From NCBI GenBank assembly GCA_964291655.2, contig OZ219802.1, forward strand, positions 1,888,001 through 1,952,000: a stretch of DNA of 64,000 bases, given 5' to 3'. Positions 29,402 through 52,118 of this stretch are shown one piece after another. The notes below the pieces were generated by a model that was not told where the DNA came from, searched no databases, and worked only from the letters and a program-made list of their open reading frames with translations. The DNA comes from Chloroflexota bacterium. GTDB taxonomy: Bacteria > Chloroflexota > UBA11872 > VXOZ01. A program made the translations under genes and the position numbers. Every line of letters starts with the position of its first letter. The stretch's first letter is position 1.

Positions 29402-30055
29402 TCACTCAATTCCGGCGAGCTTACGAATCCCGTCGCGAAAAACCTGGAAACTCTTAGACTGGTTCCTCTCAACATCCATGTGCGGCGCGATGTTGCGGGC
29501 CCAATCACATTTTGCCTCCCCTGTTACCGGGTAGCCTTCTCGTTTCAATCGCGCTGCTCCGCCTGGATGGATTGCGTCCGCAAGGACCTCCCACGTGCCG
29601 CAGATACTGTCTTGCTCGTAACGGTTTAGAACTGGTTCTCTCGCTTTAGGATACGCGGCCTTCACGGCATTGGGGTCTCCCAGCAACCACGCCTCGCCTT
29701 CCTCGATAGCAATTCTAAAGAGCGTCGTTGGGCGCGGATAACATGAATACAGGACATTTAACAACTCTCTCTTAAGTGTCATGCAGTCGCGCCTGTCCAG
29801 GTCAACAACCACAATTACCGCAAAGCCCTCTTGCAAACTTTTACCGTAGCCCCTCAATACCTGTGGGAGTTGATTCAGTAGTAGCCGTTTCTGTTTGTCT
29901 ACCGATTCACGTAAGTCAGTTGGCAAGCGGCCTATACCCTTGTAGGCATGCACTCTCCAGGAATGAACCGAAGGGTCAGTACCAAGAATCCGCTCCAGTA
30001 TTTGCTCAAGTGCAATGCTGCCCGATGCATCTTCAACCAGCACCTCAAAGTGCAT
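29402..30055 (-). CDS. DUF4276-like (TOPRIM-type) protein
   Basis: MHFEVLVEDASG, VVVDLD, IEEGEAWLLGD, NQSKSF motifs; start placed at ATG 30055, overlapping the ATPase 3' end. Confidence 0.72.
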   Translation of the reverse strand: MHFEVLVEDASGSIALEQILERILGTDPSVHSWRVHAYKGIGRLPTDLRESVDKQKRLLLNQLPQVLRGYGKSLQEGFAVIVVVDLDRRDCMTLKRELLNVLYSCYPRPTTLFRIAIEEGEAWLLGDPNAVKAAYPKAREPVLNRYEQDSICGTWEVLADAIHPGGAARLKREGYPVTGEAKCDWARNIAPHMDVERNQSKSFQVFRDGIRKLAGIE

Positions 30056-31352
30056 TCGGCTCTCTCCACTCCAGGTAGTCACTGTACCAGAGACCTCCAA
30101 GCGGCAAGCCCTCGTCCACCATGGAAATGACAATCGGGTCGTCGCTGGCTCGTCGGATAGTGGCAAATCCATCCGCTTTTTTTTCTAAGACCCAGGTTTC
30201 ATCCGGCCTTAGTGCGTCAACGAAGTAAGGCTGATGCGTTGTAACGAAGATTTGAGGTGCGTTTTTTCTCCCAGTAGCATGTCGGCGAAACTCTTGAGCC
30301 AGTATCTCAAGCAGCCTATGGTAAAGGCCGTTCTCGGGCTCTTCAATGCAAATGAAAGGCGGCGGATGTGGATCTTCTAGCATGAGGAGATAGGCAAAGA
30401 CCTTGAGCGTGCCGTCGGACATTTGCTGTGCGTAGAAGGGATCTAAAAAACCTCGGTCACTAAAGCGCAGCAACAATCGCCCATCAGGGCTCCGTTCCGT
30501 TTCTACTTGCTTGATGCCGGGAATACGTCCAGCGATTCGTGCTAGAATTCGCTCGAACCTGTCTGGATGTTCTCTTTCCATAAATTGGACTACGTTGCCA
30601 AGATTGTCTCCATGCGCGTTCAATCGCCTTTGCGGGCCCGCCAAAGGCAGACTGCGGGCGGCGTCCGGTGTAAAATAGCTCAAGTACCACCCTTCAATAA
30701 ACTGACGAAATGCAGCAATCCTGGGATGCTGTTTTAGGGCACCAAGAGTTGAAATGCCAAGCCTACGTTTGTCCTGAAGCTCTACAAACTCAGTTTCCGC
30801 CTTCTCCTCACCTGCCAATTCACGCATGAATTCAACTAAGTCGATCCTAACTGTCCCATCTTCATCCACTTGTCGTCCTTGCGCATCACCCTTCCAGGCC
30901 ACGCCTACACCCTCGTTCATCATCAAGAATGAAAAAGGCCAACCACGTCTTTGCCCCTTACGACGTTGGCGCAAACGCTCGCGAGCTACATACGGGCGCC
31001 CCGAATCATCCAGATCAATTGCAACTTCATAGGTTATCGGCCGCGCTCTTGTCTCTTCCCTGTAGTAGATCGCGAACTCAATTGGCTCACTACTTCCTTG
31101 CGCGCGAATTCGCTCGAAGCCACCTCGCCCACTCGCATCGCATGCCTCTTCGATGCCCAGTTTGAGGCAGTCTGCCAAGAAGCCAAAGGCATCAAAAAGG
31201 GAACTCTTGCCCACACCATTCTTGCCAATCACCGCCGTCATGGGAGTCAGTGGTTGCGCAGCCTGAGTATTCCAGAGCTTTCCAAGTGTAATATCCTTGA
31301 GTACCCTATAGTTTTTGATTCTGATCCCCTCTATTCTTGCCATGACGGACAC
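30045..31352 (-). CDS. ABC-type/AAA_21-family ATPase
   Basis: IKNYRVL, Walker A GKNGVGKSS, signature MSDGT, Walker B ICIEEPENGLY, H-loop VTTHQP. Confidence 0.9.
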   Translation of the reverse strand: MSVMARIEGIRIKNYRVLKDITLGKLWNTQAAQPLTPMTAVIGKNGVGKSSLFDAFGFLADCLKLGIEEACDASGRGGFERIRAQGSSEPIEFAIYYREETRARPITYEVAIDLDDSGRPYVARERLRQRRKGQRRGWPFSFLMMNEGVGVAWKGDAQGRQVDEDGTVRIDLVEFMRELAGEEKAETEFVELQDKRRLGISTLGALKQHPRIAAFRQFIEGWYLSYFTPDAARSLPLAGPQRRLNAHGDNLGNVVQFMEREHPDRFERILARIAGRIPGIKQVETERSPDGRLLLRFSDRGFLDPFYAQQMSDGTLKVFAYLLMLEDPHPPPFICIEEPENGLYHRLLEILAQEFRRHATGRKNAPQIFVTTHQPYFVDALRPDETWVLEKKADGFATIRRASDDPIVISMVDEGLPLGGLWYSDYLEWREPNAL

Positions 31353-31457: not shown

Positions 31458-34400
31458 CTAAGACGCGTGGGCTTTTTCGAGCGCGCCGTCGCGTTCCAGG
31501 ACGGCGCGGAGGTAGACGCCGGTGTAGGAGTGGGGCAGGTGGGCCAGCGTTTCCGGGGTGCCTTCGGCGATGAGTTCACCGCCGGCGTCGCCGCCCTCGG
31601 GGCCGAGGTCGATCACCCAGTCCACGCACTTGATTACTTCCAGGTTGTGCTCGATCACGATCACCGTATTGCCGGTGTCTACGAGGCGTTGCAGCACCTC
31701 CAGCAGGCGTTCCACGTCGGCGAAGTGCAGGCCGGTGGTGGGTTCGTCCAGGATGTAGAGCGTGCGGCCGGTGGCGCGTTTGGAAAGCTCAGAAGCTAGC
31801 TTGATGCGTTGCGCCTCGCCGCCGGAGAGCGTGGTGGCGGGCTGTCCCACGCGCATGTAGCCCAGGCCCACGTCCACGAGCGTTCTGAGTTTATTGTGAA
31901 TGCTGGGTATGTTTTCAAAGTATGCGTTGGCCTCGTCGATGGTGAGGTCGAGCACGTCGGCGATGGTCTTGCCCTTATAGGTGATTTCCAGCGCCTCGCG
32001 GTTGTAGCGCTGGCCGGCGCAGACCTCGCAGGGCACGTAGACGTCAGGCAGGAACTGCATTTCGATTTTGATGATGCCGTCGCCGCGGCAGGCCTCGCAA
32101 CGGCCGCCCTTTACATTAAAAGAGAAGCGACCCGGCTTGTAGCCGCGCACGCGCGCCTCCGGCGTCTTGGCGAATATCTCGCGCATGGGCGTGAACGCGC
32201 CAGTGTACGTCGCCGGGTTCGAGCGCGGCGTGCGTCCAATGGGCTGCTGGTTGATGTCGATGACCTTGTCGATGTTTTCCAGGCCCAGGATCGCGTCGTG
32301 GGGGCCGGGACGCTCGCGGCTGTTGTAGATCTCCTGCGCCAGGCGGCGGTAGAGCACGTCGATGACGAGCGAACTCTTGCCCGAGCCGGAGACGCCGGTC
32401 ACGCCGATAAGCCGTCCCAAAGGGAAGTCCACGTCGAGGCTTTTGAGATTATTGGCGCGGGCGCCTTTCACCGTAATTCTTGCTCTTCCCGCAGGCCCCG
32501 AGCCTGCCGCAGCCGTTCGTCCTGAGCTTGTCGAAGGACCGTGACCGGACTTTGCCGCGAGCGCCTTTCCTGATTTCCCCGCAGGAGCCCGTGCTGAGCT
32601 TGCCGCAGCCACTCGTCCTGACCCTCCTGCCGCAACCGTTTGCCCCGAGCCCCCCACATCCGTTCGCCCTGACCCTCCCGCAGCCGTTCGCCCTGAGCTT
32701 GTCGAAGGGCCTTGTCCAGAGCCTGTCGCAGGACCACGCCGTTCCTGCGGCACCGGAATCACCCGCCGGCCGGTCAGGTAAGCCGCCGTCAGGGATTCGT
32801 CCACCGCCATCACGTCCTCCAGCGGTCCCGCCGCCACGACGCGGCCGCCGTGCTCACCCGCGCCGGGCCCAATGTCGATCACGTGGTCGGCTGAGCGGAT
32901 CGTCTCCTCATCATGCTCTACCACCAGCACGGTATTCCCCAGGTCGCGCAGGCCGCTCAAGGTCTCGATGAGACGACGGTTGTCCCGTTGGTGCAGGCCG
33001 ATGGAGGGCTCATCCAGGATGTAGAGCACACCCACCAGGCCGGAGCCAATCTGGGTCGCCAGGCGGATGCGCTGCGCCTCGCCGCCGGAAAGCGTGGCGG
33101 TGGCGCGATCAAGGGTGAGATAGTCCAGCCCCACGTTCTCCAGGAAGTGCAGCCGCGCCCGAATCTCCTTGAGAATCTGGCGGCCGATCAGGCGTTCCCG
33201 CTCGGTGAGCGGCAGCGCCTGGAACCAGGCGCGGGCGTCCTTCACGGCAAAGGCCGTTACCTGCGCGATAGTGTGAGCGTTGATCGTGACAGAAAGACTC
33301 TCCGGCTTCAGGCGCGCGCCCTGGCAAGCGGGACAGGGCTGCACGGTCATGAAGCGCTCGATTTCCCCGCGCATGTAATCGGAATCGGTCTCTTTGTAGC
33401 GCCGCTGTAAATTGGGGATCACGCCTTCGAAGTCCACCGTAAACGTGCGCATCTCGTCGCGGGCGGCCTTCACCGTTACGGGAACGCGCTCTTCAATGCC
33501 ATAGAGCAGGATATCTACATGCTCTGCTGCCAGCTCCGCCACCGGCACGCGCAAAGAGAAATTGTAGTGCTCTGCCACCGCTTTCACCACCTGATAGAGG
33601 TAGGAATCCTTGGCGGTGAGCCGCGACCACGGCAGAATGGCGCCCTCCATGGGCGAGAGCCGCTTGTTGGGCACGATGAGGTCGGGATCGAACACCATGG
33701 TCGTGCCGATGCCGGTGCACTCCGGGCACGCGCCGTGAGGGCTATTGAAGGAAAACGTGCGCGGCTCCACCTCGCCCAACGAAATGCCGCAGTGCACGCA
33801 GGCGAATTGCTCGGAGAAGAGGAGCTCGACCGGCTCCGTTCTTTCGCCGGAATGACGGGCAGATGGATTGTCGGTTTCTCCAGTATTAAGATCGGATGGA
33901 CTCCCGCTTTCGCGGGAGTGACGGGAAGGGTCTGTCTTTCCGGTCTCAGCAAATTGACCATCGGAGACTGGATTCCGGCTTTCGCCGGAATGACGATCGG
34001 CGGACGGTTTCCCGCTCTTTTCGTCGATTCCGCCTTCTCCGTCATTCCCACTTTGTCCGTCATTCCCGCGCACGCGGGAATCCATCTTCTCTTCGCTGCC
34101 GGTACTTGCGTTCACACGCAGGTTGGACACTGCCGCGTCTCCGCCGGATGGACTCCCGCTCGCGCCGGAGTGACGGGCAGGGTCTGTCTTTCCAGTCTCT
34201 GAGAATTGACCATCGGAGACTGGATTCCGGCTTTCGCCGGAATGACGGTCAGATGGATCCCCGCCTTCTCCGTCATTCCCGTGAAAACGGGAATCCATCT
34301 TCTCTTCGTTTCCGCCTCCGTCACCAACGATTAAATGAGACTCAGTCGAATCCTCTTCGGATGGACTCCCGCTTTCGCGGGAGTGACGGGCAGGGCCCGT

Positions 34401-35195
34401 CTTTCCGGTCTCAGCAAATTGACCATCGGAGACTGGATTCCGGCTTTCGCCGGAATGACGGCCTGCCCCGTCAACAATCACAATCCGCACCACACTGGAG
34501 CCCAACCGCAGCGCCGTCTCCAACGAGTCCGCCACGCGCGTCTTATCCGTCTCGCCGCCCCGGTTCACCAAGCGATCCACCACAATCTCGATTGTGTGCT
34601 GCTTATAGCGGTCCAGGGTTGGCGTTTCGTCCAAGTCGTAGACCGTGCCGTCCACGCGCACGCGCACGTAGCCCGCCTGGCGCGCGTCCTCAAACACCTG
34701 CCGGTACTCGCCTTTGCGGTCCTGCACGATAGGCGCCAGGATCATGTAGCGCGTGCCGTCGGGCAGGTCGAGCAGCGTGTCTACCATCTGCTGGACAGTC
34801 TGCTGGGAAATCTCGCGGCCGCATTCCGGACAGTGGGGCACGCCGATGCGGGCAAAGAGCAGGCGCAGGTAGTCATACACTTCCGTGACCGTGCCGACCG
34901 TGGAGCGCGGGTTGCGGCTGGCGCCCTTCTGGTCGATGGAAATGGCGGGTGAGAGACCGTCGATGTGGTCGACGTCCGGCTTTTCCAGCATGCCGAGAAA
35001 CTGGCGGGCGTAGGCCGAAAGAGACTCCACGTAACGCCGCTGCCCTTCGGCAAAGATGGTATCGAAGGCCAGGCTCGATTTGCCGGAGCCGGAGAGGCCG
35101 GTGATGACCACTAGCTTATCGCGCGGTATGTCGAGGTCGATGTTCTTCAGGTTGTGTTCGCGCGCGCCGCGGATGCCGATGTACTCTTCAGCCAT
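31458..35195 (-). CDS. uvrA: Excinuclease ABC subunit A, enlarged (1245 aa) by two in-frame repeat-derived insertions
   Basis: [23 protein letters not shown], zinc fingers, two LSGGEAQRI signatures, second Walker [11 protein letters not shown]; open frame throughout. Confidence 0.97.
32484..32735. repeat. Intragenic array of CCGTTCGTCCTGAGCTTGTCGAAGG-family REP units in uvrA
   Basis: Full units at ~32513 and ~32684 with degenerate partial copies between; same family intergenic at 15853, 37163, 52478, 62065. Confidence 0.85.
33840..34466. repeat. Intragenic array of CGTC-family REP palindromes in uvrA
   Basis: GGATTCCGGCTTTCGCCGGAATGACG x3, GGACTCCCGC...GGAGTGACG x3, CGTCATTCCCG...CGGGAATCC x2 plus fragments. 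Confidence 0.92.
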
Positions 35196-50126: not shown

Positions 50127-52118
50127 TTACTCGACGATTACCGCTTCCTGCTGGCCGGCGCGGATCTCGCGGATTTGGTCGCGGAGGAGCGCGGCGCGCT
50201 CGAAGTCCAGGTCTTTCGCCGCTTTGCGCATCTGCTTTTCAAGCTCCTTGATGAGCTTGGCCGACTCCTTGGCCGAGAGCGGTTTGTGCTCCGCCTGATA
50301 GCTCGATTCCTCTTCCGCCACGGCGCGAATGGTATCGGTAATGTCGCGGATCGCCTTGTGCACGCTCTCCGGCTGGATGCCGTGCTGATCGTTGAAGGCG
50401 ACCTGCTTTTCGCGGCGGCGGTAGGTCTCGTCGATGGCCCGGCGCATAGAATCGGTGACGTTGTCGGCATAGAGGACCACGTGGCCGTGGACATGCCGCG
50501 CGGCGCGCCCGATAGTCTGCACCAGCGAAGTCTCGCTGCGCAGGTAGCCTTCTTTATCCGCATCGAGAATCGCCACCAGCGACACTTCCGGCAGGTCCAG
50601 ACCCTCCCGCAGCAGGTTGATGCCCACCACCACGTCGTAGACCCCCAAGCGGAGGTCGCGCAGAATCTCAACGCGTTCGAGAGTGTCGATTTCCGAGTGG
50701 AGGTAGTGCACCTTGATGCCGATCTCGTTCAGGTATTCGGCGAGTTGCTCGGCCATGCGCTTGGTGAGGGTCGTAACTAATACGCGCTCGTGCTGCTCCA
50801 CCCGCTGACGGATTTGGCTGACGAGATGGTCTATCTGTCCGGCGGTGGGCTGGATCTCGATGGATGGGTCTACGAGGCCGGTCGGTCGAATGATCTGCTC
50901 CACCACCTGGCTGCTGCGTTCGCGCTCATACATGCTGGGCGTCGCGGACACGAAGACTACCTGGTTGAGCCGCTGCTCCAGCTCCTGGAACATGAGCGGC
51001 CGGTTGTCAAGCGCGCTGGGCAAACGGAAGCCGTAGTCCACCAGCACCTGCTTGCGGGAGCGGTCCCCGGCGTACATGCCGCGCAACTGCGGCACAGCCA
51101 CGTGGGACTCGTCGATGAACATCAGGAAGTCTTTGGGGAAATAGTCCAGCAGCGTCCACGAGGGATCCCCGGCGCTGCGGCCGTCCAGATGGCGGCTGTA
51201 GTTCTCAATGCCCTTGCAATGGCCGGTCTCGCGCAACATCTCCAGGTCAAAGTGGGTGCGTTGGAGCAGGCGCTGCGTCTCCAGGAGCTTGCCTTCGCGT
51301 TCGAGCTCGGCAATGCGTTCGTCGAGTTCCACCTCGATGTTCTTGACGGCGGATTCGATGCGCTCCACCGGTGTCACGAAGTGGCTCGCCGGATAGATGT
51401 TGATGGCCTGCCGCTGGTCGAGGATTTCGCCCGTGAGGGGATCGATCTCGATGATGCGGTCCACCTCGTCGCCAAAGAAGTCTATGCGTATCGCCGTGTC
51501 GCCATAGGCGGGAAAGATGTCGAGCACGTCGCCCTTCACGCGGTACGTGCCGCGCTTGAAGTCCACGTTATTGCGCTCGTACTGGATGTCGTTCAAGCGC
51601 CGTAACACGTTCTGGCGGCGGTATTGTTCACCCACGTTCAGCGGGACTACCACCTGCCCATAGTCGTGGGGCGAGCCCATGCCGTAGATGCAGGACACGC
51701 TGGCGACGATAATGACGTCCGGCCGTTCCAGCAAAGACCGCGTGGCCGAGAGCCGGAGTTTTTCTACCTCTTCGTTTACGTCGGAATCTTTCTCGATATA
51801 GGTATCCGTGCGGGGAAGGTACGCCTCAGGTTGGTAGTAATCGTAGTAGGAGACGAAGTATTCGACCGCGTTCTCCGGAAAGAAATCGCGAAACTCCGAG
51901 AAGAGTTGGGCGGCCAGAGTCTTATTGGGCGCTAGTACCAAGGCGGGTCTCTGAATGGCTTGAATGACCTGCGCCATGGTAAGGGTCTTGCCGGAACCGG
52001 TGACGCCAAGGAGGGTTTGAAAGGGATATTCAGCATGGCAACCACTGACCAGTTGGTCGATGGCTTCCGGCTGATCGCCGCGCGGCTCAAGCTCTGTGAC
52101 CAATTGAAACGGAGGCAC
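50127..52118 (-). CDS. uvrB: Excinuclease ABC subunit B
   Basis: [65 protein letters not shown]. Confidence 0.98.

Follow-up and report, generated by a model that had tools for sequence, protein, structure and literature searches.

In-frame insertions of repetitive extragenic palindromic (REP) sequences and of Rickettsia palindromic elements (RPEs) are the textbook case of selfish DNA that adds peptides to bacterial proteins, and the published cases are small. RPEs, the subject of reports by Ogata and colleagues (2000/2002), are said to lie in frame within genes that stay functional. GTAG- and CGTC-tagged REPs were defined by Di Nocera, De Gregorio and Rocco (2013, BMC Genomics 14:522, PMC3733652), whose main text describes REPs inside genes of several species, many of them replication or repair genes, and includes uvrA of Thioalkalivibrio and both uvrA genes of Opitutus terrae among the hosts. 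The same text reports intragenic REP dimers and clusters, the clusters encoding at most 43–82 amino acids (aa), states that CGTC REPs have no dedicated transposase and that RPE ends carry CGTC, and names five phyla that have CGTC repeats, Chloroflexi not being one of those named there. Here we describe an intact Chloroflexota uvrA gene in which nine CGTC-tagged REP cores and their spacers encode a 213-aa insertion next to the UvrB-binding domain. The gene lies in a 64,000-nucleotide (nt) stretch of contig OZ219802.1 (positions 1,888,001 to 1,952,000, assembly GCA_964291655.2), hereafter the window, for which a preliminary description had been made from the sequence alone.

Two in-frame insertions in a complete UvrA

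The uvrA open reading frame (ORF) contains no stop or frameshift across its 1245 codons and encodes a complete class I UvrA with two ATP-binding cassette (ABC) halves, matched over its full length by solved UvrA chains (E = 0). Pfam analysis identified UvrA_inter, UvrA_DNA-bind and ABC_tran, and the invariant motifs are all kept. No second uvrA, the presence of which the preliminary description had named as a point against itself, was found in the source genome (3.47 Mb, two contigs), and uvrB (in the window, near 50346–50474) and uvrC are both intact. Close UvrA homologues (88% identity) are named as Chloroflexi or Chloroflexota proteins from metagenome-assembled genomes.

Alignment with solved UvrA fell into three pieces (query residues 1–243, 457–822 and 907–1233, corresponding to chain residues 21–261, 263–629 and 634–960), revealing two insertions: one of 213 aa that replaces a single chain residue (insert 1) and one of 84 aa that replaces four (insert 2). 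Insert 1 follows the motif IVIVDG, between the final strand of the UvrB-binding domain and the next strand, in agreement with the preliminary description, which had placed an in-frame insertion of about 210 aa at this point. Coordinates are collected in Table 1.

Scanning insert 1 with a 27-nt consensus revealed nine CGTC-tagged REP cores, where about nine or ten palindromes had been counted before, separated by spacers and laid out as three diverged blocks. Eight of the cores form intact hairpins, in which an 8-bp stem carries a 4-nt loop and the CGTC tag stays unpaired (−10.8 to −15.9 kcal/mol); the ninth, at the 3' junction, is degenerate. All nine start with CGTC in the element's own orientation; seven are gene-sense and read RHSxxSxxP, and two are inverted and read MDSRxxGND. 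The peptide families and their numbers in the 1245-aa ORF are as first listed, with RHSGESRNP three times, RHS[RG][EA]SGSP three times and MDSR[FV][HR]GND twice. Stem variants (CCGGC/GCCGG, CCCGC/GCGGG and CCCGT/ACGGG) keep their pairing and correspond to subfamilies found throughout the genome; insert 1 contains at least four stem subfamilies, each matched by a variant that occurs genome-wide.

The anchors GGAATGACG stand at 33849, 33987, 34239 and 34452, with gaps of 138, 252 and 213 nt, each divisible by three, so that both the positions and the spacing given in the preliminary description were recovered. Its triplicated ETGKT-bearing unit was likewise found at the DNA level, as three 123-nt copies that are 82–85% alike and spaced by 252 and 213 nt. 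What did not hold was the statement that REP DNA accounts for the whole insertion: the cores occupy 243 of its 639 nt (38%), and the remainder is spacer DNA private to uvrA, with no other copy in the genome and no match of 45 nt or more outside the gene. For want of such a match, a longer composite mobile element was rejected as the source of the spacers. Much of the growth of the protein, which the preliminary description had derived from palindromes, appears to be local duplication of blocks made of REP and private spacer, as opposed to repeated insertion of REPs. The encoded segment is acidic, with a high content of Ser, Gly, Glu, Asp and Arg, and as RNA it is unusually structured (fold z = −8.1).

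Insert 2, in the linker between the ABC halves, contains two copies of another dispersed repeat (read GPSTSSGRT, 24–40 copies in the genome) together with degenerate GSGRT copies. Directly downstream of uvrA lies a 435-aa ORF (30045–31352, minus strand), whose N-terminus resembles a P-loop ATPase of AAA_21/OLD-like type.

Table 1. Features of uvrA, its REP cores and other genes carrying in-frame REPs (window positions unless prefixed C1 or C2)
Feature	Position	Strand	Basis and remarks
uvrA	31458..35195	−	1245-aa ORF; sole uvrA of the genome
UvrA_inter (PF17760), aa 132–241	34473..34802	−	Pfam; directly upstream of insert 1; pLDDT 82–96, ends in strand E235–241
Insert 1, 213 aa (aa 244–456)	33828..34466	−	PDB alignment break, query 243/457 = chain 261/263
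REP core 1 (RHSGESRNP)	34434..34460	−	0 mismatches, −13.6 kcal/mol; commonest genome variant (44 copies)
REP core 2 (RHSRESGSP)	34362..34388	−	compensated stem changes, −15.9 kcal/mol
REP core 3, inverted relative to gene	34271..34297	+	−10.8 kcal/mol
REP core 4 (RHSGESRNP)	34221..34247	−	0 mismatches
REP core 5 (RHSGASGSP)	34149..34175	−	one stem mismatch, −11.6 kcal/mol
REP core 6, inverted	34058..34084	+	half copy (GNDGEGG, family D4) follows at about 34040
REP core 7 (RHSGESRNP)	33969..33995	−	0 mismatches
REP core 8 (RHSRESGSP)	33897..33923	−	consensus scan
REP core 9 (RHSGERTEP), degenerate half copy at 3' junction	33831..33857	−	6 mismatches, no hairpin; same junction peptide in relative P0004
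UvrA_DNA-bind (PF17755), aa 503–614	33354..33689	−	Pfam; downstream of insert 1
Insert 2, 84 aa (aa 823–906), linker between ABC halves	32478..32729	−	PDB alignment gap, query 822/907 = chain 629/634
HerA-type DUF87 ATPase (L039)	C1:95331-97214		one or two in-frame REP cores, hydrophilic frames
Eco57I-type restriction-modification methylase (L038)	C2:91593-94574		insert of about 170 aa of REP peptides splits Pfam match in two
MoeA (L041)	C2:389818-391449		insert of about 110 aa within MoCF_biosynth; two REP cores in hydrophobic VIPAKAGIQ frame
Membrane protein without Pfam match (L040)	C2:2267718-2269460		one or two in-frame REP cores, hydrophilic frames
APH-type kinase (L042)	C2:2625192-2626553		one or two in-frame REP cores, hydrophilic frames

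The palindrome family in the genome and in related UvrA proteins

The REP family is abundant in the source genome. For two tag 9-mers, base composition predicts about 27 occurrences and 229 were found, a degenerate 25-nt REP pattern gave 96 matches against none for the reversed control, and strict palindromes number 179. Allowing up to five mismatches, we counted 212 cores, 187 of them outside gene calls and 25 inside, including eight in uvrA (core 9, with six mismatches, falls outside this census); the gene calls come from a crude model of our own, not an annotation, and cover about 79% of the genome. The 11 window copies outside uvrA all lie outside called genes as well, bearing out the earlier view that the palindromes belong to the family that fills the intergenic regions. 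uvrA is the largest REP cluster of the genome, with eight cores, followed by clusters of six, four and three, 15 doublets and 161 singletons. The clusters of six and four cores are located on C2 at about 1865557 and 1875751, 12–22 kb upstream of the window; the ORF over the former has a negative coding score, and this cluster appears to be intergenic.

A check for REP-associated tyrosine transposases (RAYTs) returned one Y1_Tnp match in the genome, a weak one of 30 bits, and the 5 kb to either side of this match contain no REP core. The family is a many-copy stem-loop with an unpaired CGTC end, is mostly intergenic and has no flanking dedicated RAYT, as is characteristic of the CGTC-tagged REP superfamily. 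Membership in the GTAG REP/REPtron group was rejected, since the tag is CGTC and no RAYT stands next to any core.

A search for the same peptides in other genes, which the preliminary description had proposed, identified five further genes with in-frame REPs. Four of these (the genes for an Eco57I-type methylase, a HerA DUF87 protein, an APH-type kinase and MoeA) have their REPs within Pfam domains, and the fifth encodes a 581-aa membrane protein with no Pfam match. Four of the five use the hydrophilic pair of frames, MoeA with its VIPAKAGIQ frame being the exception.

To examine related genomes, we employed a six-frame search of 40 of them, which found uvrA in all 16 congeners; no stop was present in any matched piece of the 16 genes, one of which is cut by a contig end. 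The length of site 1, taken as the stretch that separates two conserved anchors (ETALxLG and LxFSExFAC), amounts to 225 aa in the window uvrA and 67–353 aa in the congeners. In ordinary Chloroflexota UvrA it is 13–20 aa (46 measured; the anchors were unmatched in 23 of 69 ordinary UvrA and in three g8 genomes, which count as unmeasured and not as negative). Together with the single solved-chain residue that insert 1 replaces, these lengths support the earlier statement that ordinary UvrA has a short loop at this position.

The congener loci were pooled with database matches of 76–89% identity to form a clade set, from which 11 duplicates, one 1938-aa double UvrA, the partial sequences P0046–P0051 and the contig-truncated L024 were dropped before the tree was built. 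Among the 48 distinct clade sequences, site 1 measures 59–353 aa and takes 37 different lengths, against 13–14 aa in five outgroup sequences, and in the core-protein tree sister taxa differ in site-1 length nearly always; the length polymorphism that the preliminary description had proposed to map by alignment with related UvrA is thus extensive. The site of insert 2 is variable too (13–143 aa in the clade versus 6 aa in the outgroup). Among genomes of the same class (G017, G019, G025, G027 and G035), several have double-length UvrA-like frames of 1938–2021 aa and some have second UvrA paralogues of 1083–1182 aa; both are unrelated to the REP insert.

Block content differs among relatives as well. 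P0004 has one block, with the C-terminal junction of the window sequence; L016, the closest relative, has two blocks and a different junction, GQESDDSRKPVE, common to L010 and L011; and the window sequence has three. From these comparisons block content looks like a mosaic with rapid two-way turnover, and the description of the array as expanding, as it had been put initially, is not demonstrated. In the congener L019 (G011, 1393–1617) the loop contains no CGTC REP and holds four copies of another hairpin family, read PHPxxLPxGEG. Strict copies of the CGTC REP number 31–139 in each of the 16 congeners. Six genomes of another family contain 41–148 strict copies of the same REP, yet have only 17 aa at site 1; the presence of the REP alone therefore does not yield an array.

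Such a repetitive locus in a metagenome-derived genome could also be an assembly artefact, with the array, or the number and order of its blocks, being mis-assembled or a strain chimera. Consistent with this, no public-run Logan contig spans the array, the k=31 unitigs stop wherever a REP core lies, both DNA runs show numerous core-to-core joints (many of which reflect the repeat), and the locus is highly polymorphic between relatives. The two DNA runs, X1 and X2, hold 84–86% of the words, and block-specific unitigs with 0 mismatches tile 33500–34386 and 34435–34800. Their depth over the array resembles that of the flanks (6.3–8.8 versus 6.1 and 3.5 in X1; 32–34 versus 32.5 and 24.8 in X2), which speaks against an artefact, although these runs may be the source sample and are not independent support. 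The genome is in just two contigs, and, as the strongest argument, the 16 independently assembled congeners and 32 more database sequences carry in-frame arrays at the same site. We therefore regard an assembly artefact as very unlikely.

In the RNA libraries, depth piles up on the REP cores and derives from the whole community; one contig, X22 (313 nt), covers 33619–33851 and then continues into unlike sequence. Metagenome runs labelled as sponge or coral contain small shares (0.05–0.29), from which no habitat conclusion is drawn.

Reading frames, selection and predicted structure

The REP has six reading frames, of which one contains a stop and two are hydrophobic. A frame census over the 48 inserts gave 119 RHS-type and 77 MDSR-type readings, both of them hydrophilic frames, and none in each of the three other open frames, counts that do not represent independent events, as blocks are inherited.

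Ratios of nonsynonymous to synonymous substitution (dN/dS) were calculated on codon alignments by the Nei-Gojobori method (NG86). Compared with the closest relative, the three core segments gave 0, 0 and 0.06, and insert 1 gave 0.84; with three further relatives, the core gave 0.015–0.084 and insert 1 about 0.61. Values for insert 2 were 0.28–0.70, the lowest being that for the closest relative. Purifying selection on the UvrA core is strong (dN/dS 0–0.08), and the contrast of the core with insert 1 indicates that uvrA is functional and that insert 1 drifts almost freely at the protein level. Decay of uvrA into a pseudogene, with the array as accumulating junk, would agree with the usual effect of REP insertions, which normally disrupt genes, and with the position of the insert beside the UvrB-binding domain. 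However, a frame of 1245 codons without stop or frameshift, the low core dN/dS over four comparisons, the status of the gene as sole uvrA, the intact uvrB and uvrC and the retention of Pfam domains and invariant motifs make a pseudogene extremely unlikely. The earlier proposal that the array is kept in frame inside a core repair gene is thus upheld, by an intact single-copy uvrA with a constrained core and by open frames in 16 of 16 congeners.

An AlphaFold2 model of residues 1–700, built from a 70-row alignment, gave the UvrB-binding domain a predicted local distance difference test (pLDDT) score of 82–96, and residues 244–455 were modelled as coil with a pLDDT of 35–47 and no secondary structure. 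Confident strands at 235–241 and 456–461 flank the insert; the return of confidence at the second strand suggests that insert 1 sits in a beta-hairpin turn. Insert 1 is thus predicted to be an intrinsically disordered loop, and its coil prediction and near-neutral evolution argue against the word domain, which the preliminary description had used.

If the insert were removed from the transcript as an intron is, or from the protein as an intein is, the mature protein would be ordinary. The high structure of the segment as RNA could be read in this way; otherwise nothing positive was found. On the other side, UvrA has no intein or homing-endonuclease Pfam match (E ≤ 0.01), the insert is a low-complexity coil without an Rfam intron match, the open frame is kept in every relative, which removal at the RNA level would not need, and the bias to hydrophilic frames points to translation. 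We assign this explanation a negligible probability. Three matches to an Rfam plant microRNA model (25–31 bits, against a gathering score of 150) were rejected as hairpin look-alikes.

The best explanation, and in our judgement a likely one, is that REPs landed in a permissive UvrA loop, which was then rapidly remodelled under selection on the rest of uvrA. One or more copies of the CGTC REP (27 nt long, folding into an 8-bp stem capped by a GNRA-type loop, with the tag left unpaired) would have entered the permissive beta-hairpin loop where the UvrB-binding domain ends, in an ancestor of this Chloroflexota genus, and further REPs may have been acquired by the loop, as the four or more stem subfamilies indicate. 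Blocks of about 200–250 nt, consisting of REP and spacer, would have been repeatedly duplicated and deleted, with recombination between alleles as a probable third route of remodelling. Selection on the rest of uvrA would purge frameshifts, the stop-containing frame and probably the hydrophobic frames; both the open frames and the contrast in dN/dS support such a filter. What survives would be an acidic disordered loop in near-neutral drift, presumably translated as part of an otherwise functional UvrA and itself without functional effect.

Several observations weigh against this history. How many blocks there are, and in which order, is known from a single assembly, public short-read unitigs are interrupted at each core, and the RNA-library contigs (two runs) are only 90–95% alike, come from relatives and do not bridge the array. 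Alignments of the insert to distant relatives are uncertain, making the dN/dS values of about 0.6 rough. The hydrophilic open frame SFRRKPES is also never used in the 48 inserts, so that hydrophobicity alone does not explain the frame bias, much of which may be explained by inheritance of the frame through block duplication. In addition, no member of the clade is back at the ancestral loop length (minimum 59 aa versus 13–20 aa), which pure neutrality with free deletion does not predict, although the argument is weak because the sequences are related.

Such persistence would be expected if the REP-derived loop had acquired a function and were kept by selection instead of just being tolerated, whether as a needed spacer or flexible tether linking the UvrA core to its UvrB-binding domain, as a regulator of UvrA–UvrB loading, or in control of the mRNA through its eight hairpins. 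The insert persists in 48 of 48 clade sequences and in all 16 congeners, none below 59 aa; one lineage refilled the loop with another hairpin family instead of losing it; insert 2 has a lower dN/dS (0.28) relative to the closest relative; the mRNA segment is strongly structured (z = −8.1); and Di Nocera et al. (2013, PMC3733652) speculate in their main text that REPs in repair genes modify activity. By contrast, insert 1 has a dN/dS of 0.84 relative to the closest relative, the 48 sequences show 37 lengths and have no motif in common apart from the REPs, a coil is predicted for the region, conservation does not extend beyond the DNA palindromes, and the six REP-bearing genomes of the other family manage without an insert. 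An acquired function, although the main rival reading, is therefore unlikely, and we retain the history of REP landing, remodelling and selection on the rest of the gene.

A more speculative extension, to which we give little credence, is that the loop is, in this genus, a standing nursery in which successive selfish hairpin families are captured, block-amplified and reshuffled without pause, the 50 to 340 new residues being by now indispensable, or at least irreversible, for the UvrA of this lineage. If true, the loop would exemplify constructive neutral evolution or act as a new tether in the UvrA–UvrB damage hand-over, and it would be a natural, ongoing case of domain-sized protein sequence arising de novo from non-coding selfish DNA in a core gene.

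Comparison with described palindromic elements

The locus presents a core repair enzyme with a domain-sized segment in a loop, the length of which differs between almost every pair of related species. The clade is thereby a natural series for studying the birth of disordered protein sequence, its filtering by frame and hydropathy and its turnover, for asking how much bulk UvrA tolerates beside the UvrB-binding domain, and for asking why palindromes hit uvrA so often, as the literature notes. In practical terms, arrays of this kind disrupt assembly from short reads and lead to inflated protein lengths in genomes derived from metagenomes.

A literature search with the peptide strings of the insert found no papers. 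In-frame REPs in genes are nevertheless of a known kind, with uvrA among the hosts. The elements described here resemble the CGTC REPs of Di Nocera et al. (as set out in the main text of PMC3733652) in being short stem-loops with an unpaired CGTC tag, mostly intergenic and also found in frame within genes. The likeness to RPEs, in which selfish palindromes in frame add peptide segments, is one of insertion mode only: RPEs occur as one or two elements per gene and belong to another phylum and another sequence family, whereas in the uvrA described here nine cores form an array that is organized in higher-order blocks and varies extremely in length from one species to the next.

The preliminary description had placed the locus far beyond single-element cases. 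In size this stands, since the published clusters encode 43–82 aa (the intragenic list in Additional file 3 of PMC3733652 may hold larger ones), and here the two inserts reach 213 and 84 aa, and site 1 of the congeners extends to 353 aa from anchor to anchor. The contrast with single elements does not stand, as it overlooked published REP dimers and clusters in genes, uvrA included. Unlike the intragenic REPs described in the text of that article, those of the present clade are organized in blocks of REP and private spacer, persist and turn over throughout a genus, and in one lineage have been replaced by another hairpin family. Collectively, what is new here is the size of the insertion, its block architecture, its genus-wide persistence with very fast turnover, and the colonization of the same loop by different repeat families.

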